This document shows, piece after piece, positions 8,227 to 27,592 of a stretch of DNA of 58,396 nucleotides. The translations under genes and the position numbers were made by a program. The stretch is from an uncultured Bacteroidaceae bacterium (GTDB taxonomy: Bacteria; Bacteroidota; Bacteroidia; Bacteroidales; Bacteroidaceae). Each line of letters begins with the position of its first letter. The stretch's first letter is position 1. Under the pieces are notes generated by a model, which had not been told where the DNA came from, searched no databases, and was given only the letters and a program-made list of their open reading frames with translations. The DNA is taken from positions 1 to 58,396 of the forward strand of contig CAZAIM010000001.1 in NCBI GenBank assembly GCA_964485215.1, given 5' to 3'.

Positions 8227-11200
8227 TTACCTGACCAGCACCTTCTTGCCATTTACAATATACATGCCTGCCGGTACACTGATGCGTGTAGTACCCTCTT
8301 TGAGAGACAGTTTTCGTACCAGACGGCCATCAACGCCATAGACTGCAAGTTCCATTTCGTCAAGCGACGTAACAGTAATGCACTCGCCGCCCTTGACTGT
8401 GTATGACTCAAGACCGTTCCCTACAGAAGTAGAATAGGTAAAAGAGGCCGAAGCATCGGCAATACGCTGCTCTTCATAGCCGGCATTGACAGCATAGATA
8501 TTGCTCAGAGCAAGCACACGAGCATTCTCCTCCACCAAATAAGAAGCACTTAGAACCAAGTTGACAACAGTTTCATCAGCAGTATTGAGTTCGCTGTTAT
8601 CCTCGGAGTAGAGAACTACTCTATAGTTGTTCATATCCTTCTGGGCATATGTCATTTTGCACGATGCAAGGTTCTCGCCCATCGTTATATCATATACCTC
8701 CACTCCATCGGGGACATTAATATCGAACTGAAGTGCTGAATATCCTTCGACTCCTGAAATTGCCAAAGGAACGCCCTCTTCTGTACCAACCTCAAGTTTA
8801 AAGTCATTTGCCGACAGAATAGCATCGGCAACAGGAGTACGGTACCAATACATTGACGATGGCGCATCGTTCCCAAGTATAAGTTCGGCAGTCGAGGCCG
8901 CATCGGCAAGTTCAATCTTTCCATTGGTATCAACATCGGCCTTTCCTGCACGGAATGCACCATTGTCAACACCATTAAGGTAGGCTACAATAAGTGCTAC
9001 GTCGTGTACAGTAACAACATCGTTGCTGTTCACATCGCCAACGACTGCATGCAGTATATCATCGATGTCATATTCGGTCAAGTTATTGAATATATGGTTC
9101 TTACGAGTTTCGAGCCACTGTTTTGCACGGTCTCTGTCACTTTCGCCAAAACCACAAGAACTGCCCCAAATGACAGCATTGCTGCTGAACGAATTCTTGG
9201 CAAAACTGTAATAGCTGTCGATATAATCCTCAAGTTCCTCCATGCAATTGTTCTCAAGAAACTCTTTCCACACTCTATAATAGTGTTTCCTGAATGTTTC
9301 GTTACTTGTTATATCTTCCCAGAAACCACTTGCAGCCATGTTGATATTGATATTGCTTACTGTCGCATCGGAATAGCAATAAGAAGAGGTTGTCTCATAT
9401 CCATACCCCCAGTCAAAATCCCATATCGGGCCGAATGTAAGCTTGCCCTCCGGATCACTTTCATTCTTGTAGAGGAATGTACTCTTCGGGTGGTTCAGTT
9501 CCTGATTCAAAGACAGGTCGTTGGCAAGGTAGAAGCGTGCAAGCGCATCCACATCGAGCACTGTTTCAATGTCACCGCCATTAAACAGTACATTAGACAT
9601 CTCTTTTACATCGTCGAGCATTGCTGTACGGCGTGCGGTTGCAACATCGGTTGTATAATCATTCAGGTCGGGCTCATTTATCTTTACCGGAAGATTATAT
9701 ACACCTGTACGGTATATCGGTTCATCGGTGCTGCCGTATGTATCCAGTTCTAGGACATATCCGAGTGCCTCGTCTATATCTACACTGTTGTTTGCCATTC
9801 CTATCTTTTCGGTAAACATATAGTTACCCTTGTATTCCCCGTTTATATAAAGATCGACAGGGATTATATGGTTGGTATAATGCGCTCCGGCCATCTGACC
9901 CATCTTCATGGATATTGCATTGGCCATAAGCGAGCCTCTCTGGGCATTCGCAAGCAGCACCCAGCTCTTGCCCTTTGTCAGGCCGAACGGCTTCACCTTC
10001 TCGGCAAACTTCAGGCGGTATGGTTTCTTGGTGTAGCTCCATGAAGAGTTTCCGCGACCCTTTATCTGCACCGAATCCTCGAAGTTCTCATACACACCAT
10101 AACCTGTTATACGGAAGTTTGCATTAAGGTAATAATCCTTGCTTGTCACCGACATCCCTCCGTCAATGTCAATATCTATTCGAGGCACCGATATTGCATT
10201 GTCAGTAAGCCACTCTACGTTTATATTATACTCACGCCCGAAAGGCCTGTAACGGTTCTCATATTTTGCATCCTGTATTTTTACAGGCTCCTCAGACGTA
10301 CCTTCAAGAACCTTATAGACACGCAACTCCGAAAGTGCCATATGATTCTTTGAATACTCACCTCTTGTCTGCAATATCCTTATTCTTGAATAACTGCCGC
10401 CAAGAGATATTGTCGGTGAGGTATATTCCTGACCGGCACCGCCTGTAGGCATATTATCAACAGTGTAATCGAGTGTACGCACTAGTGTCCACATATTGCC
10501 GTCATTGCTTGCGTATATCTCCCAGACAAGAGGGTTGTAACGAGATTCCGGCCTGCACTTGTAGTATAGCTGTATGTTCTCCAATGATTCCGGCAGGAGA
10601 ATATTTATATAGGGGTTCACATTAAGCGTAGCATTGTTTGCACTACCCCATGTAGAATGGAAAATCGTTGACGGATTGCCGTCAAGCAAGTTCTCCAGTC
10701 CTTCGTTGGACTGTTGCGAAGGCTTGTTGGTAGAGAGCATATCTGCAGTGAGCTTAACCTCCACAGTATCACCATCAGCAACAGGTGTTGTCCATATCTC
10801 GTCCTGAACCTTTACACGTTCAATGGTGTTATATCCCGGATATGTCACCTTGTATGTCACCTTGTCGGCAAAGCTCTGACGTGTAACCTTGCTCTCCTGC
10901 AATACAGTATCAACAAATGCCACAGCCTTGTCGTCACTGAGCTGAAAGCTTGCAGTAAGCCACTTGCCTATTGCGTTAAGGCTGAAATACATCTCGCCTG
11001 ACACCGCTTCGGCAATAGCATCGACATTCAGATTCGGGTTATACTTGTTGTTGAACTTGAACGATGTCATTGTGGGCAACTGTGGTGCTACAGCCGAACA
11101 GCTGTCATACTCTTCCTGAGTATAGTACATCGTATCTCCATCCTTTATGGGGAAGCAGAGCTTTCCGTTCTCTTCATAATAATTGCCGTCGAGTGCAGCC

Positions 11201-12927
11201 AAGGCGTACGCATCTACGCCGCCATTCGCAAGATACACATAAACAGCCTCACCTTCGCCAAACTGTTCATTGTCATCCTCGCCTGAACCATCTCCCCCAC
11301 TGTTGCCGCCTGAACCCACAACCTTTGTCGATTCAAACTGAGCTATCTCATTCTCAATCTGAACAAAGACAGCCTCATACTGTTCTGCGGTATATATGCC
11401 GGCAGCATTCTTCGCTGCTGCTATTGTCGAGACTATACCTTCGAGTATGGACCTTGAGCTTTCGGGATAGGTACCTTCAACATACGGGTAGCTGCTATAT
11501 GTAGCTGTTGACTGCAGTTCTGCCACACGACGCTCATACTTCTTCAGGCCGACAGCCATATATTCGGAGAGTGCAACCAGAAGTGTCGATTTAGCCGTCT
11601 CAATCTCCGAAAGGTTCTTTACGATGCCGATTGTGTTCGCGGCACTTGATATGGCAGAACGCAAGGCTTCATCCTCCCCTGCACAGTCACCGTCAAAGTT
11701 GCCGTATTCGGACAATGCGGCATTTGCATTATCTATGACAGGCTGCAATGTATTTGTTGCTTGTTGAAAGAGAGAGAGCATCAAGGACTCGACTGTAGAA
11801 TCGTCAAGCAAAGCCTTGTATATATCCCAGCCAAAAGCTATCGGCAAGGAATAGCCTTGTGTGTAATCCCCGTTCTCAAGAGCAGTCTTGTGCTCAAGGT
11901 CAAATGTCTTCATCTTGGAATCAACTCCGTCACGCATTTCTGCACCGACATAGAGCGTAAGTTCTCCCGAAGAGTTCACTCCATCGTACTGCAACCCGAA
12001 CTTGCCGTCACCCACTGCCGTAATCTTTACATAAGCAGCCTTGCTCAGATATGTCGTACTGTATTGCCAACCGTTCAAGCCATTATAGGCACTGGCTGAA
12101 TTGGCAAGATACTTTCCTGCCATAGGCCAATAGATTATATAGTGTTCATCATCAACAGGAACAAGTTGCATCACATTCTCAACCGAAGCCTCAACATCAC
12201 CTTCCTCGGCATAGCGCATATACAGAGAGCCACTGCCTGTATAGGTTGTTCCATTGGATGCTGTAAAGAATTTCACAGCATTGCCCTTCAATACAAACAG
12301 CTGCTTCTCTGCAGCAAGTTCCTGCACTGCTGTCACAGCATCGCCAAGCTTGAATTCATCGCCAACCGAAACCGGCACATAGTCTGTTCCCAGAGTTATT
12401 CCGACCTCCGTCGGGGAATTCTTTGGCTCGCCAAGACGCGTTGCCCACTGCAATGAAAAAGAAGAGACACTTTCCGCAAGGTCCAGTTCTATGTAGTGAT
12501 AATCGGTTACAGGCCAATTGCCATACCACATCGAGTGGAAATATGTCTTGTAATCATTGTCGCTCAATGCAGGCAAGCCACCTCCATCCTCGAAATAGGC
12601 TAAGGAATTGTGGTCGGCATTTGACGAGGCACTGTAAGAGACCTCATTCCCGTTTGCATCAAGCACCTTCAGTTCCGACAGGACAAAACAATAGTTGTTG
12701 CCATTGGGCTGCTCGCCCGATACAGTTCCGGTAACCGTAATGCGCACCTTGTTTGTTGATACTCCGGGAGAAAGTTGCGGCGAGTTGTATAAATAATACG
12801 ATTCGCCCCAATATGCCTCCTCACCTGGCAGGCCATTGGCCGTGGTTAATGTAAAAGACCATTCCTGAGCATAGCTGCCCAGCATTACTGACAAAGTCAG
12901 AACCACAGTAGATAGAAACCTTTTCAT
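8227..12927 (-). CDS. giant secreted CotH-domain protein with discoidin (F5/8 type C)-like modules, a dockerin-like Ca-binding pair and a T9SS C-terminal sorting domain
   Basis: Start set at ATG 12927, giving the signal peptide MKRFLSTVVLTLSVMLGSYAQ; the track start 12963 is TTG. Discoidin-like LLDGNPSTIFHSTWGS...ALSELRVYKV is present. The CotH core contains KKPYRLKF, WVLLANA, SMKMGQMAG, IPVDLYINGEYKGNYMFTEKI and FGPIWDFDWGYG. Dockerin-like loops are GDVNSNDVVTVHDV and ADVDTNGKIELAD (about 8880-9050). The C-terminal LAVYGVDGRLVRKLSLKEGTTRISVPAGMYIVNGKKVLVR is typical of a Por secretion tail. Confidence 0.8.
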   Translation of the reverse strand: MKRFLSTVVLTLSVMLGSYAQEWSFTLTTANGLPGEEAYWGESYYLYNSPQLSPGVSTNKVRITVTGTVSGEQPNGNNYCFVLSELKVLDANGNEVSYSASSNADHNSLAYFEDGGGLPALSDNDYKTYFHSMWYGNWPVTDYHYIELDLAESVSSFSLQWATRLGEPKNSPTEVGITLGTDYVPVSVGDEFKLGDAVTAVQELAAEKQLFVLKGNAVKFFTASNGTTYTGSGSLYMRYAEEGDVEASVENVMQLVPVDDEHYIIYWPMAGKYLANSASAYNGLNGWQYSTTYLSKAAYVKITAVGDGKFGLQYDGVNSSGELTLYVGAEMRDGVDSKMKTFDLEHKTALENGDYTQGYSLPIAFGWDIYKALLDDSTVESLMLSLFQQATNTLQPVIDNANAALSEYGNFDGDCAGEDEALRSAISSAANTIGIVKNLSEIETAKSTLLVALSEYMAVGLKKYERRVAELQSTATYSSYPYVEGTYPESSRSILEGIVSTIAAAKNAAGIYTAEQYEAVFVQIENEIAQFESTKVVGSGGNSGGDGSGEDDNEQFGEGEAVYVYLANGGVDAYALAALDGNYYEENGKLCFPIKDGDTMYYTQEEYDSCSAVAPQLPTMTSFKFNNKYNPNLNVDAIAEAVSGEMYFSLNAIGKWLTASFQLSDDKAVAFVDTVLQESKVTRQSFADKVTYKVTYPGYNTIERVKVQDEIWTTPVADGDTVEVKLTADMLSTNKPSQQSNEGLENLLDGNPSTIFHSTWGSANNATLNVNPYINILLPESLENIQLYYKCRPESRYNPLVWEIYASNDGNMWTLVRTLDYTVDNMPTGGAGQEYTSPTISLGGSYSRIRILQTRGEYSKNHMALSELRVYKVLEGTSEEPVKIQDAKYENRYRPFGREYNINVEWLTDNAISVPRIDIDIDGGMSVTSKDYYLNANFRITGYGVYENFEDSVQIKGRGNSSWSYTKKPYRLKFAEKVKPFGLTKGKSWVLLANAQRGSLMANAISMKMGQMAGAHYTNHIIPVDLYINGEYKGNYMFTEKIGMANNSVDIDEALGYVLELDTYGSTDEPIYRTGVYNLPVKINEPDLNDYTTDVATARRTAMLDDVKEMSNVLFNGGDIETVLDVDALARFYLANDLSLNQELNHPKSTFLYKNESDPEGKLTFGPIWDFDWGYGYETTSSYCYSDATVSNININMAASGFWEDITSNETFRKHYYRVWKEFLENNCMEELEDYIDSYYSFAKNSFSSNAVIWGSSCGFGESDRDRAKQWLETRKNHIFNNLTEYDIDDILHAVVGDVNSNDVVTVHDVALIVAYLNGVDNGAFRAGKADVDTNGKIELADAASTAELILGNDAPSSMYWYRTPVADAILSANDFKLEVGTEEGVPLAISGVEGYSALQFDINVPDGVEVYDITMGENLASCKMTYAQKDMNNYRVVLYSEDNSELNTADETVVNLVLSASYLVEENARVLALSNIYAVNAGYEEQRIADASASFTYSTSVGNGLESYTVKGGECITVTSLDEMELAVYGVDGRLVRKLSLKEGTTRISVPAGMYIVNGKKVLVR

Positions 12928-13077
12928 AATGCTGTCTATTGTATTTTTATTATAATCGGTCAACAGATAATATTATCTTCGATAATACCCCAATTTGCAA
13001 AGAAACAGAATTTTACAATATTCTCAAAAAAAATATTTATTTTTTATGGCACATAGATTAAAAAACCATCAACTATT

Positions 13078-13129
13078 ACACAAATACAGAGCAATGCGAA
13101 GATTGTTTCGCATTGCTCTGTATTTGTGT
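13078..13129 (-). terminator. 23-bp perfect-stem hairpin terminating the FHA/PP2C cassette
   Basis: ACACAAATACAGAGCAATGCGAA-gattgt-TTCGCATTGCTCTGTATTTGTGT lies 19 nt after the PP2C stop at 13148. It separates that operon from the CotH gene promoter region. Confidence 0.65.
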
Positions 13130-13147: not shown

Positions 13148-14485
13148 CTACTGTTGTGAAACAGTATTCTTGTCTACTACTTCTCCCTGTTCACCACTTC
13201 CTTCATTTTCCACACGGACCGGATTCCCTTCATCAAGAGTTCCATCCGCAGCTTCATCATCTCTTTCTTCGGAAGCATCAGCATCGTTTTCTTGTGTTAC
13301 GCTAAGATTCTCTTCTTCCTCACCGCCGGCAGATGTGGGAATTTCGGGATTCTGTATCGAGGTGACATCATTCCCGGGTTCTGCAGTTGCATCTGCACCG
13401 TCGCCTTCATCAGAATTTCTTTCCAGCTGCTTGTCTTTGGCCGATGTTCCGTCTTGCAATTCCTTCTCTACCACAGGTTTTGTATCCTCGGGAACCTTAA
13501 CATCCTGTTCGGAAACCGATGACGGTTCATTCGATGGCGCAACTGTAACCGTTGCTTTGTCCGTATTGGCCAAGAGGAAATATGCGCCAATGGAAAGAGC
13601 AACAAGAAACATTGCTGCCGGCAAGATGAAAATCTTAGGAATACCCCGTTTTTTAACGGGAGACTCTACTGGGATGGAATATTCGGGCAATTCGGCCGAT
13701 TTTGGTATCTCCGGAACGACCGGTATCGCACCTTTGACATCAAGGACGTGGATTAGATAAGCTGTGTGGTTGTCACGTGCCTCTACAGTATTCTCCTTGA
13801 TAATACGCATCTTTTCTTCATCACTGAACGAATTATCGAGAATAACGTTAGCAAGATGACGGCTCTCCATAACCTCGTTGACACCATCACTGCACATGAA
13901 GAAATAGTCGCCCGGACGTATGTCGGTAATCTCCTTTATGTCGGCACGGCTACGATATTCGTTGTTGGGCTGCATGCAGCGTGTAATTACATTCTTCTGC
14001 CCGAATGTCTTTGCAGTCTCCTCTGTAAGTTCCCCAATCTTTATCAAGTCGTTCACAAGTGAATGGTCGCGTGTCTCGAACAGAATGCCGAGTGACGGGC
14101 GCAGATGATAAACCCTGCTGTCGCCCATATGTGCTACCAAGCAGCCCCCGACATGGAAATTTGCGAATGTCATCGTTGTACCCATCTTCTTTGCAGCATG
14201 GGTGTCACGTGCATCGAGCGCGTCATACGCCGCAGCCAGAGCATTACGCAACTGTTCGGGGGTAAAGAGTGTGTCGGCCGGACAGTTGGCTTTCACATAA
14301 CCGCCCATCGCATTGCACACAGCCTGACTGGCCACCTCACCGGAGTCGTGTCCGCCCATACCGTCACACAGGACAAAGCAGCGGTCGTTGTCGGTTGCCT
14401 GCCCGGGAGCAGGGTACATATAATCTTCCTGATTGCTGCGATGCCCCAGTTCGTGCATCGACAGGACTTTCAACTTGTACTCCAT
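13148..14485 (-). CDS. PP2C-family Ser/Thr phosphatase with TM helix and long acidic disordered C-terminal tail
   Basis: Motifs RSNQEDY, FVLCDGMGGHDSGEVAS, VAHMGDSRVY, FMCSDGV and DNHTA mark the PP2C metal-binding blocks. They are followed by the TM helix IFILPAAMFLVALSIGAYFLLA and about 160 aa (residues ~286-445) rich in D/E/S/T/P. Confidence 0.85.
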   Translation of the reverse strand: MEYKLKVLSMHELGHRSNQEDYMYPAPGQATDNDRCFVLCDGMGGHDSGEVASQAVCNAMGGYVKANCPADTLFTPEQLRNALAAAYDALDARDTHAAKKMGTTMTFANFHVGGCLVAHMGDSRVYHLRPSLGILFETRDHSLVNDLIKIGELTEETAKTFGQKNVITRCMQPNNEYRSRADIKEITDIRPGDYFFMCSDGVNEVMESRHLANVILDNSFSDEEKMRIIKENTVEARDNHTAYLIHVLDVKGAIPVVPEIPKSAELPEYSIPVESPVKKRGIPKIFILPAAMFLVALSIGAYFLLANTDKATVTVAPSNEPSSVSEQDVKVPEDTKPVVEKELQDGTSAKDKQLERNSDEGDGADATAEPGNDVTSIQNPEIPTSAGGEEEENLSVTQENDADASEERDDEAADGTLDEGNPVRVENEGSGEQGEVVDKNTVSQQ

Positions 14486-14511
14486 AATCTATTTATGTTT
14501 TGAAGCAGTTA

Positions 14512-14519
14512 CAAAAATA
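14512..14519 (-). promoter_or_regulatory. candidate internal -7 box (TATTTTTG) upstream of the PP2C gene
   Basis: The reverse complement of CAAAAATA matches TAnnTTTG exactly. It lies 27 nt upstream of ATG 14485, in the 94-nt gap after the FHA gene. Confidence 0.35.
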
Positions 14520-14579
14520 TTCTTACCGAACTATGACATACAACACTTCCCCTTACACAAGGAAGCCGGTGCATCATAG

Positions 14580-15101
14580 TCACTGTTTCTCTATATCAAT
14601 ATGAAACTTGCTGCCGGCCAAGGCAATGGTATCGCCGGGGCCTACAACTATTATATCATCACCGACAACCTCTTCGCCATTGACCGATGTCGGATATTTG
14701 TTCTTTGCATTCGATATGCTGCAACGCACATTCCCGCCAGCAGTCAGCATAACTGTTATGTATGAATGCATGCGGCTGATACTACGATCCGAAGTCTCTA
14801 ATTTTATATCGGCAGTACATGTGCTGGCATTTCTGCCTACACTGTTTGCACCAACAGAAAGCTTATATCTGCGCCCGGTAGCATCGTCCACCAGATAGAC
14901 TTCGCCCTGACTGCCACTACCGGGCAGGACGGTTCTTTTCTCCTCTACCGATGAGCCTACCTGTTCATATTCGCGGAACATCGCATTCTTTCCACAACTG
15001 GAACAGGTAATTCTTTTGCTCTCGATATTCGGTATCATCATAAGCAGAAGCTGCTTACCGCAATGAGGGCATCTCAAGCGGATTGTCTTTATCATATTCA
15101 T
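14580..15101 (-). CDS. zinc-ribbon + FHA domain protein
   Basis: The N-terminus has CPHCGK..(19 aa)..CSSCGK (a four-Cys ribbon). The C-terminal FHA pattern is VGRN....ADIKL...DRSISRMHSYI....N..N.YPTSVNGEEV. The stop lies 4 nt from the upstream caspase gene stop/start junction. Confidence 0.75.
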   Translation of the reverse strand: MNMIKTIRLRCPHCGKQLLLMMIPNIESKRITCSSCGKNAMFREYEQVGSSVEEKRTVLPGSGSQGEVYLVDDATGRRYKLSVGANSVGRNASTCTADIKLETSDRSISRMHSYITVMLTAGGNVRCSISNAKNKYPTSVNGEEVVGDDIIVVGPGDTIALAGSKFHIDIEKQ

Positions 15102-15105
15102 ACCT

Positions 15106-15819
15106 TTACCATTTCATTATTGTCATCTTGTCGGAGAAACTGCCCCACATTACCGGGTGTTGTTTCTCTTTGGAGGCCGACCGTACGCCGTTGCTGACAA
15201 AGTCATAAAGTTCCTTGGCCGTTATTCTACGATTCCTGTCCTCATCGGCCCCTCCTCTTAACCCACGCTCAAGAAAAGCTGTAAAAAGCCCATTCTTCAT
15301 GCTTGGGATTTCCATAGAAGATTCGTTACCGCGCGAAGAGAGGAAAAACACCACGTTATTCTGCTTGCCACTGCCCGATGAGCCACTGTTCACACGCAGC
15401 CCTCCCGAACAGCAGGCATCGGCAAACACCAGTTTGTTGACGTTCCTGAACTGAGAGAAGAGCCTGCGTACCTCCTTGAATGCAAAGACACCATCGTACA
15501 TACAGAAACCGGATTGTACTCCGTGCCCTGCAAAAAACAGTATGATATTGTCATCCTTCCTTGCCTTGGAGAAAAGCCTGCTCATGCTTTTCTTTACTTC
15601 GGCCACTGTAGCGTTGCTGTTAAGCAGGCATATATATTCGGCATCGTTGTTCTTCCGGCACAGTTCCGCCATTGTTCTGGCATCGTTCACGGGCAGCCTA
15701 AGGTCGGAAGCAGTCCCGGGATAATCGGATATGCCTACCGCAACCAGATATGTCTTCTGTGCGAACAGAAGCTGTACAGACAGAAGCAAAAACAGCAACA
15801 GCGAGAAACGTCTCTTCAT
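15106..15819 (-). CDS. exported caspase-fold (peptidase C14) protease
   Basis: A signal peptide MKRRFSLLLFLLLSVQLLFAQ is present. YLVAVGISDYPG...LPVNDARTM follows, with catalytic His in FFAGHG (His99) and catalytic Cys in FADACCSGG (Cys136). Confidence 0.8.
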   Translation of the reverse strand: MKRRFSLLLFLLLSVQLLFAQKTYLVAVGISDYPGTASDLRLPVNDARTMAELCRKNNDAEYICLLNSNATVAEVKKSMSRLFSKARKDDNIILFFAGHGVQSGFCMYDGVFAFKEVRRLFSQFRNVNKLVFADACCSGGLRVNSGSSGSGKQNNVVFFLSSRGNESSMEIPSMKNGLFTAFLERGLRGGADEDRNRRITAKELYDFVSNGVRSASKEKQHPVMWGSFSDKMTIMKW

Positions 15820-15828
15820 ACCGCTATA

Positions 15829-16749
15829 TTAACACATTGACACATCGGCATCGTTCATGTAGTCGGGAAGGTCGTTCGATGAGAGCAAATCATTGTCAAT
15901 ATCCATCATCTGTGCAGCCATATCATCAACAGAGAAGCCAGCCTCCGAAACATCAAGTATCTCAAATTCATCTATGCTGCCATTGTGGTCAAGGTCGGAA
16001 ACAGCTACATCAAAGAGACCGTCATGGTCGGCATCGATATACAGGATATTCTCTCCCTCAACCTCTACCGCGCCTATATACATATCCTGCCCCTCAACAT
16101 TTTCCTCTATTACACCAAGGATGCGCACCTCATCGTCGGAGTCATCGACGATAGCCACAACCGGTTCACCTTCATCCGCAACAATCTCCTGCCCGGCCTG
16201 CACATCGGTTTCCTGTAAAGATTGAGAAAATTCATTCTTCTCCTCGGCCGACATTGCATCCCATTCCTCTTTGTAATAGGTATTGTAAAGATTGCCCTTC
16301 CATTCAAATACACCACCAGCACCTACCTCGGCACGGGCAGCCGCAAAAGCCTCGGAAAAAGACATATCGTCATTTACTGACGATGCAATCTGAATAGCTT
16401 CGGCATCCTCAGCCTTCGCAGAAAGGATTTCGCCTACACCGCCAGCTGCATTGCCGCTCTCTTCTACATCATCTATCGACGGTTCAACAACACCTTTGGG
16501 TGCATCGTCATCGGCAAAAATTCTAGTACCTGCATATGCTCCGGCCGCACCCATGGCCAAACCGCCAACGGCACCTATCACAACACCGGCCGCAGTACCA
16601 CCAGAACCGGAAGGGGCTGAATTGTGGGGTTCTGCCGAAGGCTTTTGTACCGCATTACCTGGACGCTGTGATGCGCCGCATGTGTCATCATTCGCATATC
16701 CGGTATCACCATCATAACCGGCAATAACAGTTCTATCTTCTGTACTCAT
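15829..16749 (-). CDS. acidic single-TM protein with paired EF-hand/dockerin-like calcium-binding loops, function unknown
   Basis: The N-terminus is P/G/S-rich and is followed by the Gly/Ala-rich TM helix AAGVVIGAVGGLAMGAAGAYAG. A conserved-looking block SFSEAFAAARAEVGAGGVFEWKGNLYNTYYKEEW comes next, then a D/E-rich tail with DADHDGLFDVAV and DLDHNGSIDEFE (15961-16035). The 9-nt gap to the caspase gene implies co-translation. Confidence 0.6.
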   Translation of the reverse strand: MSTEDRTVIAGYDGDTGYANDDTCGASQRPGNAVQKPSAEPHNSAPSGSGGTAAGVVIGAVGGLAMGAAGAYAGTRIFADDDAPKGVVEPSIDDVEESGNAAGGVGEILSAKAEDAEAIQIASSVNDDMSFSEAFAAARAEVGAGGVFEWKGNLYNTYYKEEWDAMSAEEKNEFSQSLQETDVQAGQEIVADEGEPVVAIVDDSDDEVRILGVIEENVEGQDMYIGAVEVEGENILYIDADHDGLFDVAVSDLDHNGSIDEFEILDVSEAGFSVDDMAAQMMDIDNDLLSSNDLPDYMNDADVSMC

Positions 16750-16779
16750 AATATTTATTTTTTGGTTTTACATCTATTG

Positions 16780-16787
16780 CAAAGTTA
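16780..16787 (-). promoter_or_regulatory. candidate internal -7 box (TAACTTTG) upstream of the acidic TM protein gene
   Basis: The reverse complement of CAAAGTTA matches TAnnTTTG. It lies 31 nt upstream of ATG 16749, in a 142-nt gap. Confidence 0.35.
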
Positions 16788-16891
16788 ACACCGGAGAACA
16801 ACCGAACAAAATCTTTCGCCCGTTTTTGTACCAACATCTGCCGAAAATGTACGAACCGCCTTCGTTTGATGAAGAACCGCAAAAAACGCGC

Positions 16892-17590
16892 CTATGCTTT
16901 GTATTTGGAATGACAGAAAGGACACTCGCCTGCTTTTAGCAGATTCTCATATTCGCCATTCAGTGTGCGGCCACACTGAGGATTGGGACATACATACTTC
17001 TGACGGAACTCCTTGTCTAGTTCTGCGGCCTTTATAGGATTCTTGCTGGCAGCTACAAAACCTACATATCCGAAATAACACGAAAGCAGCAACGAGCATA
17101 CGGATGGAATCACTCTTAACTCACCTGGCAATATGCCGGTAAAGCCCAACACGCCGGCCAATGCCATAAATACAGGCATAAGACCTCTCATTGCGTTCTG
17201 CTTCCTCTCGCTTATCTGCATATTTAGTTTGGCAGCTCTGTAATCATCTATGACTCTCTTCAGATGCCCAATTGAGAATGTCTCCTTCATCCCCATCTTC
17301 TTCAGGAGTTCAGCCAACTCAAGACGATAGCGGTTCGCGCCAAGTTCTATCACTGTCTTGTCATCCAGCTCGAATTTCTTCTTTATCACATTGCTACCAT
17401 TGAGAAACGTAAAGTTCTCCTGCTTGAGGTTTGTCAGTATCTTGTTTCCGTTGTCATCAATCTCGAGTTTGCAATGCTGTCTGCTGACTCCGCAATCAAC
17501 CGAATTCGGACTGCCCGAAAGCATCTCCTTGCCATCAAGCACTATTTTCAGCCTGCCACTTGCCGAATCGCGGCCAAATATTATCTCCAT
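16892..17590 (-). CDS. membrane-anchored FHA protein (FHA - two TM helices - C-terminal zinc ribbon)
   Basis: The N-terminal FHA pattern is IIFGRD.......VSRQHCKLEIDDNGN..LTNL...N.TFLNG. Two TM helices follow (GLMPVFMALAGVLGFTGILPG and IPSVCSLLLSCYFGYVGFVAA), then CPNPQCG...(16)...CPFCHSKY. Confidence 0.75.
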   Translation of the reverse strand: MEIIFGRDSASGRLKIVLDGKEMLSGSPNSVDCGVSRQHCKLEIDDNGNKILTNLKQENFTFLNGSNVIKKKFELDDKTVIELGANRYRLELAELLKKMGMKETFSIGHLKRVIDDYRAAKLNMQISERKQNAMRGLMPVFMALAGVLGFTGILPGELRVIPSVCSLLLSCYFGYVGFVAASKNPIKAAELDKEFRQKYVCPNPQCGRTLNGEYENLLKAGECPFCHSKYKA

Positions 17591-17696
17591 AATCAGAAAC
17601 TGTTTAAAATTCCTTATCTAAATAAATACATAAAAGCTGAATAAATATATACCCCGTTTTGTACAGACAAACAGAAAATAGATTTCAAACAGCCCG

Positions 17697-18068
17697 CTAT
17701 CTTTGTTTATTAATTTCCGCCAATAAGTTTTTCATATTCGTGAGTGCAGGTCTCGAAATCTCCAACTGATATGCAAAGGTCGAGAAGTCACTCAAAACCA
17801 GACGCTGCTTCACCGGGTTTATCATATAAAGGAAGTTCCTGTTAATGATATAGCGTCGGCCAACCCTCATAAAGATAGCGGCCTTGTCATTAAGCCTGCC
17901 GGCAAGTAGTTTCTCAACATTTCCTAAACTGATGCATAGCGAGGGCTTTAGTCTATTCACAGTTACCATATGTGTATAGTTCCCGTCCGATTCAAAATAG
18001 ACAATATTCTGAATCTTGACCCGCAACATTTCATCACGTGAATTGAATAACAGATAATCCCCTTCCAT
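17697..18068 (-). CDS. stand-alone LytTR-domain DNA-binding protein
   Basis: 123 aa. VKIQNIVYFESDGNYTHMVT......L..LEKLL....F.RV.RRYIIN is the canonical LytTR pattern. No receiver domain is present. Confidence 0.8.
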   Translation of the reverse strand: MEGDYLLFNSRDEMLRVKIQNIVYFESDGNYTHMVTVNRLKPSLCISLGNVEKLLAGRLNDKAAIFMRVGRRYIINRNFLYMINPVKQRLVLSDFSTFAYQLEISRPALTNMKNLLAEINKQR

Positions 18069-18310
18069 CAGTTATAGAAACTGTTCAAATATTTAATAAA
18101 TGATTCTTGGAAACTGTTTAAATTTATAACCTTGCCTTGCCGACATCGGTTGCACTCATGATAAAACACTCACGCAAAGAAATTTAAACAACTTCTTATA
18201 TTTTTTTGCAAATTTTACAAAAAAGTTTGACTATCGCAAATTGAACAACAACAAAATGATGACATGGCTCCAAATTCAAAATTAGGCACAAACAGGAAAA
18301 GTTGTTAAAG

Positions 18311-18350
18311 AAAAACAAAAAATGGTTCTACAGGTATTCGTAGAACCATT
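18311..18350 (-). terminator. intrinsic terminator of tRNA-Pro (bidirectional architecture)
   Basis: AATGGTTCTAC-aggtattc-GTAGAACCATT (18321-18350) forms an 11-bp stem. It is flanked by an A-run on one side and a T-run on the other. On the minus strand it is followed by TTTTTTGTTTTT, 9 nt after the tRNA 3' end. Confidence 0.65.
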
Positions 18351-18358
18351 TTTTGTTG

Positions 18359-18433
18359 TCGGGATGACTGGATTCGAACCAGCGACCACACGCCCCCCAG
18401 ACGCGTACTCTAACCGGGCTGAGCTACATCCCG
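18359..18433 (-). tRNA. tRNA-Pro (anticodon GGG)
   Basis: Reverse complement: CGGGATGTAGCTCAGCCCGGTTAGAGTACGCGTCTGGGGGGCGTGTGGTCGCTGGTTCGAATCCAGTCATCCCGA. It folds as a cloverleaf with acceptor CGGGATG/CATCCCG, D-arm GCTC/GAGT, anticodon stem CGCGT/GCGTG with loop CTGGGGG (G37), and T-arm GCTGG-TTCGAAT-CCAGT. The discriminator is A, and no CCA is encoded. Confidence 0.85.
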
Positions 18434-18553: not shown

Positions 18554-20320
18554 TCACTCTCTGACTGAACGCACCTCGTGCAGCACTCGCAGCCAGTTTC
18601 CTCCCCAAATTTTCTCAATGTCGGCATCGCCGTATCCGGAACGGAGCAGTTCACGCGTTACATTACGCAACTGAGCTGCGCTTGAGCACCCGGCAACAGC
18701 ACCGTCACCATCAAAGTCAGTCCCTATACCGACATGGTCTATTCCGGCAACAGATATGGCATGTTGCAGGTGTTTAATAAAATCGGCAAGCGAAGCCACA
18801 CCATTTTCACACAAGAAGCCGCTATACATTGTCACCTGAACAACACCGCCCTTGTCTGCCAACGCCGCTATCTGCTCATCGGTGAGGTTACGTGGATGAT
18901 TGCATAAGGCACGACAGGAAGAATGCGAGCATACTACAGGCACAGTGCTTTCCTCAAGCACCTGCCAGAATGTGCTTTCAGCAGCATGCGACAGGTCTAT
19001 AGCCATTCCCACCCTGTTCATCTCGGCTACTACAGCTTTGCCAAAACTGCTTAGACCGCCGTGTTCACCGTTTCCGCGAGCTGAATCACAAATATCATTG
19101 TCACCGTTATGACAAAGTGTCATATAAATTACCCCTTCATTGAAAAAGCGTTCTATATTGCCAATATCACGTCCGATGGCATAGCCGTTTTCAATGCCGC
19201 GCATAATGACACGCCGTCCGGTCTTTTTGTATTGCCATAACATCGCAGGGGCACTACACAAGGCAACCGTGCCGGGATTTGCGTTCACACGGGCCGCAAT
19301 GCCTGCCAACAGTTCATCGGCAAGCCTCGTAGCCTGTTTCAACGCCTCTTCATCGCGTTCTCCTTGAGGTATGTAGGCAACCATCGTTGCAACATCGAGC
19401 GCACCCTCTTTCATCTTGTGAAGGTCAACAAGTGCATCGTAGCTGCGTTTCTCGAGCTGATAGCCGTTAGCGAAAAGCATCGGTGTATCGCAGTGGGAAT
19501 CGACGGTGAGCATTCCACGGTGCAATTCCTTTGCCTTGCGATAGAGGCTCGCTTCTTCTACAAGCCAGCCGAAGAGAGGCATCATACACCTGTCGCCGTT
19601 CATTATGAATGATTCGGGATGCCACTGCACCCCTATTATAGAACGGCCATCGACAGCTTCGATGCCTTCAATCACTCCATCTGTCGCACGCGCACATACT
19701 TCAAAGCCGTTTGGAACAAGGTTTACCGATTGATGATGAAAGGTATTCACAGCCAATCTGTCGGTTGCAAACAGAGAAGAGAGCTTGCTACCCTCGACAA
19801 GAACAACATCATGCGTTGCAACACCCCTTTCTACAGGCTCCTGGTCGTGGTTCAGCAGTTCGCCGCCTATGGCTGCATAAAGATCCTGATGCACACTGCC
19901 GCCCATAGCCATAGCCAAGGTCTGTATTCCGCGGCATATTCCAAGTATTGGCAGCGCGCGGTCGTCGGCCAGAAGAGCCAGCAGCAACTCCTGTTCATCG
20001 CGTTTTGGGTTTATGGTATGAAGCAAAGAGTAATCGGGCTGCTCACCTGCATAGCGTGGGTCTATGTCGGCACCTCCGGTCAGGAGCAAGGCATCGATAT
20101 GTTCCAGTGTCTCGAACAGAGCGTCTCTGTCGGCGTACGGAGGTATTATAACGGGAGTGCCGCCGGCCTGAAGCACCGAAAGGTAATAGGCCTCGGCGAC
20201 AGCAGCATTGCCATCGCGGAAGTTTGCGGTTATGCCAATGACAGGGCGGCTGCTGTAGGCCGGGAAACGCCCGTGCAGTGCATCATACTCTGCCTTTATG
20301 TCGTATTTATCGGTAGACAT
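18554..20320 (-). CDS. fusion protein: class-I glutamine amidotransferase-like gamma-glutamyl hydrolase (peptidase C26) + membrane-type dipeptidase (peptidase M19)
   Basis: The N-terminal half has RPVIGITAN, GGADIDP, the nucleophile elbow LGICRGIQTL, and HHQSV...WHPE. The C-terminal half has DSHCDTP, IENGYAIG, TLCHNGDN, DLSHAAE, VCSHSS and GIGTDFDG, the renal-dipeptidase motifs. Confidence 0.8.
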   Translation of the reverse strand: MSTDKYDIKAEYDALHGRFPAYSSRPVIGITANFRDGNAAVAEAYYLSVLQAGGTPVIIPPYADRDALFETLEHIDALLLTGGADIDPRYAGEQPDYSLLHTINPKRDEQELLLALLADDRALPILGICRGIQTLAMAMGGSVHQDLYAAIGGELLNHDQEPVERGVATHDVVLVEGSKLSSLFATDRLAVNTFHHQSVNLVPNGFEVCARATDGVIEGIEAVDGRSIIGVQWHPESFIMNGDRCMMPLFGWLVEEASLYRKAKELHRGMLTVDSHCDTPMLFANGYQLEKRSYDALVDLHKMKEGALDVATMVAYIPQGERDEEALKQATRLADELLAGIAARVNANPGTVALCSAPAMLWQYKKTGRRVIMRGIENGYAIGRDIGNIERFFNEGVIYMTLCHNGDNDICDSARGNGEHGGLSSFGKAVVAEMNRVGMAIDLSHAAESTFWQVLEESTVPVVCSHSSCRALCNHPRNLTDEQIAALADKGGVVQVTMYSGFLCENGVASLADFIKHLQHAISVAGIDHVGIGTDFDGDGAVAGCSSAAQLRNVTRELLRSGYGDADIEKIWGGNWLRVLHEVRSVRE

Positions 20321-20879: not shown

Positions 20880-21707
20880 TCATTTATCGAGTATCTTCAC
20901 TATCTCAAGTTCATATACGAGTGCACTGTAAGGAGGTATATTACCGCCTCCGCCTGCGCCATAGGCAAGTTGCCAAGGAATATAAGCCACACAGGATGTA
21001 CCTTCGGGAAGCGTGGTCAGCACCTCGGACAGGCCGGCAACGACTGAGTTTACAGGCAAATCGACCGCTTGGCCACGCGAAGAATCAAAGACCGCACCGT
21101 TGGGGAACCGCCCTTTATAGACGCAACTTACAACAGAAGCGGGAGCAGGCACACGTCCGCTGCCCATCTGTTCCACCTTGTACTGCACGCCACTTGGCAG
21201 AGTAACCACACCGGGACGCTCCTTGTTGTTTCTCATGAACTCTTCGCTCACCGAACAGAATACCGTTTTGTTGTAATACTCCTTTGCGGCCTTTATTGAC
21301 ATGGTCTTGCCACTGGCGTATGCCGATGCTTTCAGCCCTTCGAGATAGAGGCTGCGGTCGACCTTCTTGCCGTTGCCGTCGGGATATATTGCTTTGTCGG
21401 CCTCTTCGAGCATTTCCATTGCCGATGCAGCCATAACCACTCCTTGGGCATATGCCATAGACTCGGGTGAACCGTCGGTGGGAAAAGCATCGCAAAGGCC
21501 TCGCATGAAATCGTCGACAGTAGTCGAGTCGATGCCGAACTCAATCATTGCGGCAGGCATTTGCTCCGCCACAAGCATACCGACTGCAAACGAAAGCGAA
21601 TCGCCCCTGTCTGCAAGCTCTACAAACTTGTCTTCATGGGCATCGGCAGCAGGCTGGCAAGCACCCAAAAGAGATGCGAACGATGCCAAAAGCAGCAAAT
21701 TTCTCAT
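20880..21707 (-). CDS. FKBP-type peptidyl-prolyl cis-trans isomerase lipoprotein (FkpA-like)
   Basis: The lipobox is LLGAC. An N-terminal helical domain precedes the C-terminal FKBP block VVTLPSGVQYKV...Y.G.F.NG..FDSS...PVNSVVAGLSE......G......IPWQLAYG. Confidence 0.8.
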   Translation of the reverse strand: MRNLLLLASFASLLGACQPAADAHEDKFVELADRGDSLSFAVGMLVAEQMPAAMIEFGIDSTTVDDFMRGLCDAFPTDGSPESMAYAQGVVMAASAMEMLEEADKAIYPDGNGKKVDRSLYLEGLKASAYASGKTMSIKAAKEYYNKTVFCSVSEEFMRNNKERPGVVTLPSGVQYKVEQMGSGRVPAPASVVSCVYKGRFPNGAVFDSSRGQAVDLPVNSVVAGLSEVLTTLPEGTSCVAYIPWQLAYGAGGGGNIPPYSALVYELEIVKILDK

Positions 21708-21717
21708 ACGGAAGCTA

Positions 21718-22302
21718 TCAGATTACACTAATGAGTTCCACATCGAAGACAAGAGCACTGTAGGGAGGAATCATCTCTCCGGCACCATGCTCACCATAGG
21801 CCATATCATATGGGATATACAGACGCCACTTTGCGCCCTCCTTCATGAGCTGAAGAGCTTCGACCCATCCTTTGATAACCTGGTTCACGCCAAAGACAGC
21901 AGGTTCGCCGCGCTTGATTGAACTGTCGAACACAGTTCCATCAATAAGCGTCCCTTCGTAATGGCACTTCACTCTGTCTGTTGCTGAAGGCTGTTTGCCA
22001 CTACCCTCAGTTATGACCTCATACTGCAAACCGCTGGGAAGAACCGTAACACCGGGTCTCTTTGCATTTGCAGCAAGAAACTCCTCGCCACCCTTCTTGT
22101 TCATTTCGTATGCCTGTTCGGCAAGTTTCTTGAAATGTTCATTGACAACCTGCTGAGCCTCGGAATGTGACATTTCGGGAGTTTCACCCGCAAGCACAGC
22201 ACTTACACCTTTTACAAAATCCTCTACACTCATGCCTTTAACCCCCATAGAAAGAAGATTCTGGCCAATCCCCATACCGAGACCATAACTGAATTTATCC
22301 AT
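21718..22302 (-). CDS. FKBP-type peptidyl-prolyl cis-trans isomerase
   Basis: GVTVLPSGLQYEVITEGSG...V.CHYEGTLIDGTVFDSS..RGEPAVFGVNQVIKGWVEALQLM.EGAKW.LYIP.DMAYGE is the canonical FKBP_C pattern. Confidence 0.85.
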   Translation of the reverse strand: MDKFSYGLGMGIGQNLLSMGVKGMSVEDFVKGVSAVLAGETPEMSHSEAQQVVNEHFKKLAEQAYEMNKKGGEEFLAANAKRPGVTVLPSGLQYEVITEGSGKQPSATDRVKCHYEGTLIDGTVFDSSIKRGEPAVFGVNQVIKGWVEALQLMKEGAKWRLYIPYDMAYGEHGAGEMIPPYSALVFDVELISVI

Positions 22303-26035: not shown

Positions 26036-27592
26036 ATGGCACATAGACTTCTTTGGGCTGACGATGAGATAGAACTGCTGAACGCCCACATAATATTCCT
26101 GCAGAACAAAGGGTACGAGGTGACTAAGGTTACCAACGGACCCGATGCCATTGAGGCCTGCCGCAACGGCTCGTTCGACCTTATTCTGCTCGACGAGAAC
26201 ATGCCCGGACTATCAGGGTTGGAGACACTGACAAGAATAAAGGAGATACATCCGTCGACACCTGTCGTAATGGTAACCAAGAGCGAAGAAGAGGACATTA
26301 TGGAACAGGCCATAGGTTCAAAAATCGCCGATTACCTTATAAAGCCAGTGAATCCCAACCAGATTCTGCTTACGCTGAAGAAGAACATACACAGCCGAGA
26401 GATTGTAGCAGAGAAGGCAAACAGCGCGTACCAGCAGAACTTCGGGAAACTTGCCATGCAGATTGGTGATGCACGCACCATAGAGGAATGGCAGGAAGTA
26501 TACCGCAGGATTGTCTATTGGGAGTTGCAGCTCGAGGAAGCCGACAAACAGATGCACGAGATGCTGAAAGCGCAGAAGGAAGAGGCCAACAACATCTTCT
26601 CACGGTTTGTAAGGAAGAACTACCTTGAGTGGATGTCTGCTCCACGGCAGGAAAGACCATTGATGAGCCACGACCTGTTTAGGGAACGCATATTCCCGTT
26701 GGTAGACAATGGAGAAAAGGTATTCTTTATCATAATAGACAACTTCAGGTACGACCAATGGAAGGTTCTTGCCAATGAAGTCGGCAGCAGTTTCACCATC
26801 GAGGAGGAGCTCTATACAAGCATTCTTCCCACGGCAACACAGTATGCACGGAACGCAATATTCTCGGGGCTGATGCCAAGCCAGATAAAAGAGATGTTCC
26901 CCAAGCTATGGGTCGATGAAGAAGAGGAAGAGGGCAAGAACCTCAACGAAGAGGCACTGATAGAGACACAAATCGCACGCTACAGACGCAAGGACAGTTT
27001 CTCGTACAACAAGGTGCTGACCTCCACGGCCGCCGAGAAATATATCGACACAATAAACAATCTTGGCAAGAACAATATAAATGTCCTTGTCATAAACTTC
27101 ATCGATATGCTCTCGCACGCACGCACAGAATCTCTCATGGTGCGCGAGCTCGCAGCCAACGAAGCGGCCTACCGCTCCATAACACAGTCGTGGATAAGGC
27201 ATTCGGCAATAAAACGACTATTCGGCTACCTTGCAGCAAGCGACTACACAGTAGTAATCACGACCGACCACGGAAGCATACAGGTCGACACACCCACAAA
27301 GGTCATCGGAGACAAGAACACAAACACAAACCTGCGCTACAAGCTCGGCAAGGCCCTCAACTGCAACAGCAAGGAGGTGTTTGAGATAAAAGAGCCGTCA
27401 AAGGCATTCTTGCCGTCACCAAACATAAGCACCAGTTATATTTTTGCAGGCGGAAGCAATTTCTTCGCTTACCCCAACAATTATAACTACTATGTGCAGT
27501 ACTACAAAGGGACATTCCAGCACGGAGGAATATCAATGGAAGAGATGTTGGTGCCGTTTGTAAAAATGAGGGCAAAGCAGGCAAACAGATAA
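26036..27592 (+). CDS. porX: T9SS response regulator PorX (CheY-like receiver + PglZ/alkaline-phosphatase-like domain)
   Basis: 518 aa. The receiver is RLLWADDEIELL...LILLDENMPGLSG...VVMVTKSEE...KP. The C-terminal PglZ-type block contains FFIIIDNFRYDQW, SILPTATQYARNAIFSG, INFIDMLSH and TTDHG. Confidence 0.85.
   Translation: MAHRLLWADDEIELLNAHIIFLQNKGYEVTKVTNGPDAIEACRNGSFDLILLDENMPGLSGLETLTRIKEIHPSTPVVMVTKSEEEDIMEQAIGSKIADYLIKPVNPNQILLTLKKNIHSREIVAEKANSAYQQNFGKLAMQIGDARTIEEWQEVYRRIVYWELQLEEADKQMHEMLKAQKEEANNIFSRFVRKNYLEWMSAPRQERPLMSHDLFRERIFPLVDNGEKVFFIIIDNFRYDQWKVLANEVGSSFTIEEELYTSILPTATQYARNAIFSGLMPSQIKEMFPKLWVDEEEEEGKNLNEEALIETQIARYRRKDSFSYNKVLTSTAAEKYIDTINNLGKNNINVLVINFIDMLSHARTESLMVRELAANEAAYRSITQSWIRHSAIKRLFGYLAASDYTVVITTDHGSIQVDTPTKVIGDKNTNTNLRYKLGKALNCNSKEVFEIKEPSKAFLPSPNISTSYIFAGGSNFFAYPNNYNYYVQYYKGTFQHGGISMEEMLVPFVKMRAKQANR

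Follow-up and report, generated by a model that had tools for sequence, protein, structure and literature searches.

The 58,396-nt stretch of DNA analyzed here, referred to below as the window, is part of contig CAZAIM010000001.1 from an uncultured Bacteroidaceae bacterium. It contains a cassette of six genes for a LytTR-type DNA-binding protein, two FHA-domain proteins, an acidic membrane protein, an exported caspase-fold protease and a PP2C phosphatase. With moderate confidence, we interpret the cassette as a reduced, kinase-unlinked copy of a Bacteroidales-wide, trans-envelope signalling cluster based on phosphothreonine (pThr). On balance, the cluster as a whole probably couples receptor-type Hanks kinases, two FHA readers, a membrane-bound PP2C, a periplasmic caspase, an acidic transmembrane (TM) protein and a LytTR regulator. 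The six genes stay linked in approximately 80 species, including loci with a rearranged gene order, and linkage that persists through rearrangement is, in our view, a stronger sign of functional coupling than a fixed order alone.

Organization of the gene cassette

The cassette and its boundaries comprise the following features, where the one-letter symbols denote the genes and their products.

18358-18433, minus strand: tRNA-Pro(GGG) gene, the upstream boundary
18314-18357, minus strand: terminator hairpin of tRNA-Pro(GGG), with a 19-bp stem
18069-18313, minus strand: leader and promoter region of the LytTR gene, with the Bacteroides-type -7 elements TAATTTTG (18284) and TAAAATTTG (18217)
17697-18068, minus strand: L, LytTR-only DNA-binding protein of 123 amino acids (aa), without a receiver domain (Pfam PF04397)
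16892-17590, minus strand: F, FHA domain, TM helical hairpin and zinc ribbon (Pfam FHA)
15829-16749, minus strand: A, acidic single-pass membrane protein (no Pfam family)
15106-15819, minus strand: C, exported caspase-fold Peptidase_C14 protease of 237 aa (Pfam)
14580-15101, minus strand: Z, soluble protein with a zinc ribbon and a canonical FHA domain (Pfam)
13148-14485, minus strand: P, PP2C phosphatase with a TM helix and an acidic disordered tail (Pfam PP2C_2)
13078-13129, minus strand: perfect 23-bp hairpin 3' of the PP2C gene, a probable terminator and the downstream boundary

Open reading frames (ORFs) for the six co-directional genes were found at exactly the coordinates given in a preliminary description of this DNA, and the spacing claimed there for the three central genes was borne out by these coordinates, with 9 nt between A and C and 4 nt between C and Z. 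The 23-bp hairpin and the tRNA-Pro terminator, which had been proposed to insulate the cassette, are both present, and the tRNA-Pro boundary is kept in the syntenic relatives L004 and L008 (related loci are denoted by L numbers). The remaining three intergenic gaps measure 94-142 nt. Bacteroides-type TAnnTTTG elements, which have a background frequency of 0.3 per kb per strand, precede L (18284), A (16787, inside the F-A gap) and P (14519, inside the Z-P gap); the L-F gap contains none. Terminator-like sites inside the cassette occur at chance level only, and internal terminators were rejected for this reason.

The GC content of the cassette agrees with that of its flanks, which consist of housekeeping genes without an island signature, and the locus is syntenic chromosomal DNA. 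A horizontally acquired island in the source genome was rejected, since the GC content matches the flanks.

Conservation of the cluster in Bacteroidales

The conservation of the neighbourhood was analyzed in a census anchored on the caspase alignment, with one genome per species. A relative was present in at least 289 species-representative genomes, some of which have two copies, and the census includes the best 80 of these loci plus the window (81 loci in total), many of them on incomplete contigs. The best 80 loci are from Bacteroidaceae, Prevotella/Segatella/Leyella, Muribaculaceae, Alistipes, Paludibacteraceae, Butyricimonas and others.

The order caspase, zinc ribbon-FHA, PP2C was observed in 71 of the 81 loci, with the caspase and zinc ribbon-FHA genes adjacent in 73 and the A gene directly 5' of the caspase in 70. 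The LytTR gene is directly followed by F in 52 of the 54 loci that have it. An insert consisting of an acidic paralogue, a BspA-type leucine-rich repeat (LRR) protein and a 140-aa protein was found in 29 loci. The same gene order was seen in the Pfam-annotated neighbourhoods of three caspase homologues, two with kinases and one, a syntenic relative, without. In rearranged loci the linkage is kept, as in the orders LFAZPKK..C (Segatella), CLFAZPK, RgACZPLFK and FACZPKL. Homologues of the caspase (1116 at E<=1e-5) and of A (447) occur repeatedly on common contigs.

Two of the ways in which the preliminary description might have failed were examined here. The gene order is conserved across many Bacteroidales families, which excludes a random neighbourhood, and the caspase does not mostly stand apart from FHA and PP2C genes, as is evident from the 73 loci mentioned above. 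The three wider intergenic gaps and the promoter-like elements would be compatible with a chance juxtaposition of unrelated genes, but linkage in about 80 species from many families, even after rearrangement, refutes this explanation, to which we assign a negligible probability.

A typical Bacteroidales cassette was also found in metagenome-assembled genomes (MAGs) labelled Paratractidigestivibacter, Faecalimonas, Waltera, Clostridium and Oscillibacter (L022, L031, L058, L069 and L073). These are most likely mis-binned contigs, with horizontal transfer as the alternative.

Linkage to Hanks-type kinases

The cassette had been described as kinase-less, and a tblastn search with five cluster kinases identified no Hanks kinase in the 58-kb window. 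The orthologous cassettes, however, mostly carry kinases: a Hanks-type kinase is encoded directly 3' of PP2C in 53 of the 81 loci and a kinase of any position in 61, so the system is not truly kinase-less. A regular Hanks kinase in orthologous loci is the outcome that the preliminary description itself had named as speaking against its reading, and the interpretation given there is partly supported overall. Kinase genes are also located after the FHA/TM gene (14 loci) or before the LytTR gene (7 loci). Among the cassettes that were considered fully flanked, which required both LytTR and PP2C and at least 3 kb on each side (21 loci), 14 carry one to six kinases.

Pfam Pkinase matches were obtained in L001-L003 and L006. 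The cluster kinases look active, judged by an HRD-like motif in 117 and a DFG motif in 125 of 129 sequences. In 99 of the 129, the kinase domain is followed by a TM segment and then by variable C-terminal regions, and the cluster kinases are therefore mostly classified as receptor-type.

The seven complete census cassettes without a linked kinase and L004 fall into three caspase clades (window/L004/L008, L015/L023/L057 and L036/L037). All eight loci keep the GR and SRxH motifs in both FHA proteins and every metal-binding motif of PP2C. Since the readers and the eraser are conserved in these loci, the writer should be encoded elsewhere and act in trans. For the window, this implies that the putative writer is unlinked, with kinases provided in trans, rather than that there is no writer.

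A candidate for a local writer is the next gene downstream of PP2C, behind the 23-bp hairpin (8227-12963, minus strand). Its product is an exported protein of 1578 aa that contains a CotH atypical-kinase domain (residues 967-1270, E 7e-31) and an F5/8 type C domain. L004 and L008, which are also kinase-unlinked, have this neighbour too, and a distant, oppositely oriented CotH gene lies near the rearranged locus L072. That the cassette uses this protein in place of Hanks kinases is nevertheless very improbable. The gene is absent from the five other kinase-unlinked loci, shared synteny accounts for its position next to the cassette in L004 and L008, and the hairpin and a 184-nt gap separate it from the cassette. 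Furthermore, the protein has a signal peptide, whereas the predicted location of the FHA and PP2C domains is the cytoplasm. Thus, CotH was rejected as a replacement kinase based on synteny, its absence elsewhere and the wrong compartment.

Three further observations concern the kinases of related loci. The Alistipes MAG RGIG9059 contains two expanded cassettes (L014 and L016), each with four or five kinases. A cluster kinase in L003 (17643-19574) has C-terminal FKBP_N/FKBP_C domains with 44% identity to an FKBP gene in the window (20880-22302, minus strand), approximately 3.6 kb upstream of the cassette; this likeness may be a coincidence or a trace of domain exchange. Finally, L001 (12926-14041) and equivalent loci encode a 371-aa protein after PP2C that has no Pfam match and a weak match to the PADLOC model PD-T4-6 (E 1.3e-6). 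A hidden Markov model (HMM) seeded from this protein converged on the kinase family, and it is probably a degenerate kinase or pseudokinase.

Phosphothreonine readers and the PP2C phosphatase

The domain assignments of the preliminary description for F, Z and P were confirmed by Pfam and hydropathy, and for F also by an AlphaFold model. Both FHA proteins scored above the Pfam cut-off of 20.7 bits, with 38.4 bits for F (E 1.7e-9) and 25.7 bits for Z (E 1.6e-5), which also contains zinc-ribbon fragments. In F, the FHA domain (residues 1-91) is followed by a long helix, a TM hairpin at approximately 136-182 according to hydropathy, and a C-terminal CxxxxC...CxxC zinc ribbon. The model displayed the corresponding FHA beta-sandwich, long helix, TM helical hairpin and C-terminal zinc knuckle. 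Because the TM segment is a hairpin, both soluble parts of F are located on one side of the membrane. The FHA fold of F matches solved pThr-binding FHA domains, including that of M. tuberculosis FhaA, with a probability of 1.00, and F is predicted to be a membrane-anchored cytoplasmic pThr reader. The pThr-binding residues are conserved in Z (G87-R88 and S107-R108-x-H110), and the F family conserves G[RK] and SRxH.

The phosphatase P matches PF13672 (PP2C_2) with an E-value of 2.1e-13 and 50.8 bits (cut-off 24), and its metal-binding motifs ED, DGMGG, GDSR, DG and DN are all invariant. The nearest NCBIfam model is the Stp1-type PP2C (Stp1/IreP), to which P scores 149.8 bits. This is below the cut-off of 230, and P is therefore not an Stp1 equivalog. 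Hydropathy analysis placed a TM helix at 281-308 and the acidic disordered tail at 310-445.

The acidic membrane protein

The acidity and the single TM helix that had been noted for A were confirmed, but its paired EF-hand-like loops were not. The protein has one Gly-rich TM helix at 51-71, as seen from hydropathy, and its C-terminal part contains 61 D/E versus 7 K/R residues. Two folded modules are distinguished (121-181 and 208-290). A gave no Pfam match at E<=0.1, to an EF-hand or otherwise, and a homologue (P0212) gave a borderline EF-hand_5 match. The DxDxDG loops, in which D239, D241, D247 and D252 are conserved, are located between beta-strands of the beta-rich module 208-290 in the AlphaFold2 model (predicted local distance difference test, pLDDT, 93-96). 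Calcium binding by A would thus be a motif-level guess.

The A family has an invariant block of approximately 45 residues (V125-M166, VNDDMSFxEAFAAARAEVGxGGVFEWxGxxYxTYYxEEWxxMS), which is sometimes duplicated, and a conserved C-terminal PDYxNDADVS. In some homologues the block is matched by Pfam as a fragment of DUF7167, a family of which no mention was found in the searchable literature. A Foldseek search of the A model against PDB gave no fold match (best E-value 0.087). A known fold was rejected on the basis of this value and the fragmentary DUF7167 matches in some homologues only.

The N-terminal tail of A is divergent except for a conserved [DE][DE]xT motif (consensus E-E-T-I-Y-D) that is often repeated; in the window protein a D/E-x-T context is seen at T7, T16 and T23. 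Across 34 A tails the motif was counted 47 times, versus 12.9+-3.6 times in 1000 composition-preserving shuffles, none of which reached 47, a count that is not a formal probability because the sequences are related. The control pattern S..[DE] showed no excess (17 versus 18.6). Asp is the commonest residue at position +3 of the motif, and pTxxD is the classic preference of FHA domains. Based on the enrichment and the Asp at +3, the A tail is the best candidate for both a kinase substrate and an FHA ligand.

The exported caspase

The caspase matches Peptidase_C14 with an E-value of 3.2e-19 and 70 bits (cut-off 21.4). A cleavable-looking hydrophobic leader was seen at the N-terminus by hydropathy, indicating a signal peptide, and His99 and Cys136 are invariant in 13 homologues. 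The description of an exported protease with an intact catalytic dyad is thus upheld. Pfam detected no extra domain or fused effector within the 237 aa.

A caspase-fold protease raises the question of whether the cluster is a conflict or defence system, in which kinase arrays with diversifying sensors would recognize invaders or competitors and respond through the caspase. Both caspase-fold proteases and Ser/Thr kinases are recurrent components of conflict systems (PMC7159879), and a gene for a single-pass protein with a Gly-rich helix directly before the caspase gene is reminiscent of the EACC1-caspase arrangement. The one to six paralogous kinases per locus with variable C-termini, and the two loci beside conjugative-element genes, would also be in line with such a role. 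We nevertheless consider it improbable. The PADLOC-DB v2 matches are isolated and generic (caspase, PDC-M21C, PD-T4-6, mad6 and MkoA), with no partner protein, and on these grounds a known defence system was rejected. The EACC1-associated caspase model scores below its cut-off (values below), A matches no NCBIfam model, and the protease is stand-alone and exported, without a fused effector. A relative was found on only one viral contig in 2.9 million, which led us to reject a phage-borne cassette. General carriage on conjugative elements was likewise rejected, since only L006 and L003 have homologues of Tra, relaxase, RteC and ArdC in their flanks, and the window locus is syntenic chromosomal DNA of native GC content. 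The suicide or defence response suggested in the preliminary description therefore gained no specific support.

The LytTR regulator and its leader

The assignment of L as a LytTR-only DNA-binding protein holds. The protein lacks a receiver domain and matches PF04397 over profile positions 2-97 of 98, with an E-value of 1.4e-8 and 35.3 bits (cut-off 22.6). Three copies of a short repeat are found upstream of L and F.

18110-18118 and 18077-18085, minus strand: AACAGTTTC direct repeats in the L leader, 33 bp apart
17596-17604, minus strand: third copy of AACAGTTTC, 5 nt before the ATG of F

The window contains five matches to AACAGTTTC versus 0.54 expected, and the three listed copies are among these. 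The first two copies are part of a repeat of approximately 18 bp, spaced by 33 bp, and sit downstream of the promoter-like element. The repeat holds the AgrA-like core ACAGTT. AACAGTTTC is absent upstream of the LytTR gene in L004, L008 and nearly all other loci. A conserved LytTR operator was therefore rejected, the repeat being window-specific and its spacing unlike that of LytTR regulatory systems (LRS).

Compared with L004 and L008, the L leader of the window looks like it has an insertion of approximately 120 nt between the promoter-like element and the ATG. In several expanded loci (L001-L003, L022 and L042), a NusG/UpxY-like gene and a small KOW-domain gene are located approximately 0.5-1.2 kb upstream of the LytTR gene, which hints at antitermination-type control of a long operon.

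Proposed mechanism

The preferred reading, a trans-envelope pThr signalling cluster, fits the predicted topology of the components, as the envelope-spanning model of the preliminary description also did. Kinases encoded elsewhere in the genome would phosphorylate A at the acidic-x-Thr motifs of its cytoplasmic N-tail, and perhaps further components as well. The resulting pThr sites would be bound by the FHA domains of Z and membrane-anchored F and reset by PP2C. Tethered to the membrane, F may hold or release the LytTR protein, similar to the membrane inhibitors of LRS, and thereby set transcription. Precedents exist for LytTR regulators held by membrane inhibitors (PMC6193735) and for a Hanks kinase that acts on the LytTR regulator AlgR (PMC11197903). 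Being exported, the caspase would be in the same compartment as the A ectodomain and the PP2C tail, and could therefore cleave them or be regulated by them. Whichever of these two acidic regions it acts on or is controlled by, periplasmic proteolysis would in this way be linked to cytoplasmic pThr signalling.

In a more specific form of the model, which we put forward only tentatively, the periplasmic caspase processes the A ectodomain, while the pThr state of the A tail, set by receptor-kinase arrays and PP2C, is read by an F protein that gates the release of LytTR. If such an ectodomain-processing switch were true, regulated proteolysis and pThr signalling would be merged in a single trans-envelope switch of gut Bacteroidales, of a kind not recognized before.

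Alternatively, the cluster may serve envelope or cell-wall homeostasis in the manner of the actinobacterial FhaA/FhaB-PstP-PknA/PknB system, its kinases responding to envelope or peptidoglycan signals. This explanation, which we find unlikely, draws on a matching list of parts: TM receptor kinases, two FHA proteins of which one is anchored in the membrane, and a PP2C that combines a TM helix with an external tail. It is also consistent with the additional genes of expanded loci, for a GH25 muramidase with MORN repeats, a protein with a transglutaminase core and a BspA-type LRR protein, and with the housekeeping flanks of the window. Under the same explanation the FHA proteins and PP2C would tune envelope-remodelling enzymes directly and LytTR would be an auxiliary output only, which we likewise hold to be doubtful. 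None of the mapped loci has a linked rodA, pbpA or other gene of cell-wall synthesis, and the muramidase and transglutaminase are restricted to a few loci (7 and 3 ORF matches), whereas LytTR and the caspase are near-constant.

Several points weigh against the trans-envelope signalling cluster as proposed here. The cassette may be composed of up to three co-located transcription units (L-F, A-C-Z and P) rather than one operon, as suggested by the TAnnTTTG elements. No kinase is located within 5-10 kb in 7 of the 21 fully flanked cassettes. Across the F family, the Arg of the GR motif is often replaced by Lys. The candidate LytTR operator repeats are window-specific and without LRS spacing. The census covers the best 80 of the 289 caspase-anchored loci and the window, and its components were mapped on stop-to-stop ORFs by HMMs built for this analysis. 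Moreover, we infer the kinase-A tail, FHA-pThr, F-LytTR and caspase-A interactions from linkage, topology and motifs.

The cluster joins four elements that are usually studied separately, namely receptor kinases, FHA/PP2C, receiver-less LytTR regulators and an exported caspase-fold protease. Bacteroidales are dominant in the mammalian gut, and to our knowledge their Ser/Thr phospho-signalling is almost unstudied. If the parts act together as proposed, the control of receiver-less LytTR regulators, the role of a bacterial periplasmic caspase homologue and what variable-sensor receptor kinases sense in gut bacteria would become testable. Cultured carriers for genetics include Leyella stercorea DSM 18206, Segatella hominis, Bacteroides caecigallinarum and Prevotella sp. 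B2-R-102.

Neighbouring genes

Two other genes were noted in the window. A 588-aa fusion of Peptidase_C26 (gamma-glutamyl hydrolase/GATase-like) and Peptidase_M19 (membrane dipeptidase) is encoded at 18554-20320 on the minus strand and is conserved in L004. A receiver-PglZ fusion (response regulator with an alkaline-phosphatase-like output) at 26036-27592 on the plus strand adjoins a gene for a 953-aa TPR protein.

Comparison with known systems

No prior description of the cluster was found in the searchable literature, and to that extent the claim that the system is undescribed stands. A conserved Bacteroidales Ser/Thr-kinase/FHA/PP2C cluster with LytTR, acidic TM and exported caspase components is, apparently, undescribed.

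The actinobacterial cluster fhaA-fhaB(fipA)-pstP-rodA-pbpA-pknA-pknB similarly groups genes for TM receptor Hanks kinases with genes for two FHA proteins, one of them anchored in the membrane, and for a PP2C that has a TM helix and an extracytoplasmic tail, and its FhaA is structurally matched by the FHA domain of F. The Bacteroidales cluster belongs to a different phylum, has no linked rodA or pbpA and has kinases with variable C-termini, which are unlinked in the window. In addition, it contains the LytTR regulator, the acidic TM protein and the exported caspase.

The L-F pair resembles the LRS of Streptococcus mutans (HdrRM/BrsRM; PMC6193735), where a receiver-less LytTR gene is followed by a gene for a membrane protein, as in the 52 loci described above. 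As a two-gene unit the pair qualifies as an LRS, but it differs in its direct repeats: the cluster lacks conserved 9-bp repeats with an 11-13 bp spacer, and the window repeats are 33 bp apart and unconserved. By analogy, a membrane-sequestration switch is plausible. F has no homology to HdrM and BrsM and differs from them in its FHA domain and zinc ribbon, and L-F forms part of a larger pThr cluster. The architecture of the "LRS-like" operons of Bacteroides (PMC6193735) also differs from that of L-F.

In the EACC1-caspase systems (Kaur et al. 2020, PMC7159879), a gene for a single-TM protein with a Gly-rich helix likewise precedes the caspase, as A does in 70 of the 81 loci, at a distance of 9 nt in the window. 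Those systems are from actinobacteria, whereas the present cluster is from Bacteroidales. The nearest NCBIfam model to the window caspase is NF047832 (caspase, EACC1-associated type), with 59.8 bits versus a cut-off of 140, and A has no NCBIfam match at E<=0.1, its likeness to EACC1 being confined to the Gly-rich single TM helix. Furthermore, the caspase here is short and exported, without a variable effector fusion, and A has a large acidic ectodomain.

The PpkA-PppA-Fha1 pathway of type VI secretion also co-encodes a receptor Hanks kinase, a PP2C and an FHA reader for an envelope-spanning process. No structural genes of the type VI secretion system were found in the scanned flanks of the window or in the annotated related loci, and unlike in that pathway the output of the Bacteroidales cluster appears to be transcriptional, through LytTR. 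Finally, the vWA-STK-FHA-PP2C modules (STK, Ser/Thr kinase), such as the TerY-P triad and Deinococcus DRA0331-0334 (bioRxiv 10.64898/2026.01.23.701218), combine a kinase, an FHA protein and a PP2C in a self-contained signalling operon. None of the scanned components of the Bacteroidales cluster has a vWA domain, and the caspase, the LytTR regulator and the acidic TM protein are specific to this cluster.

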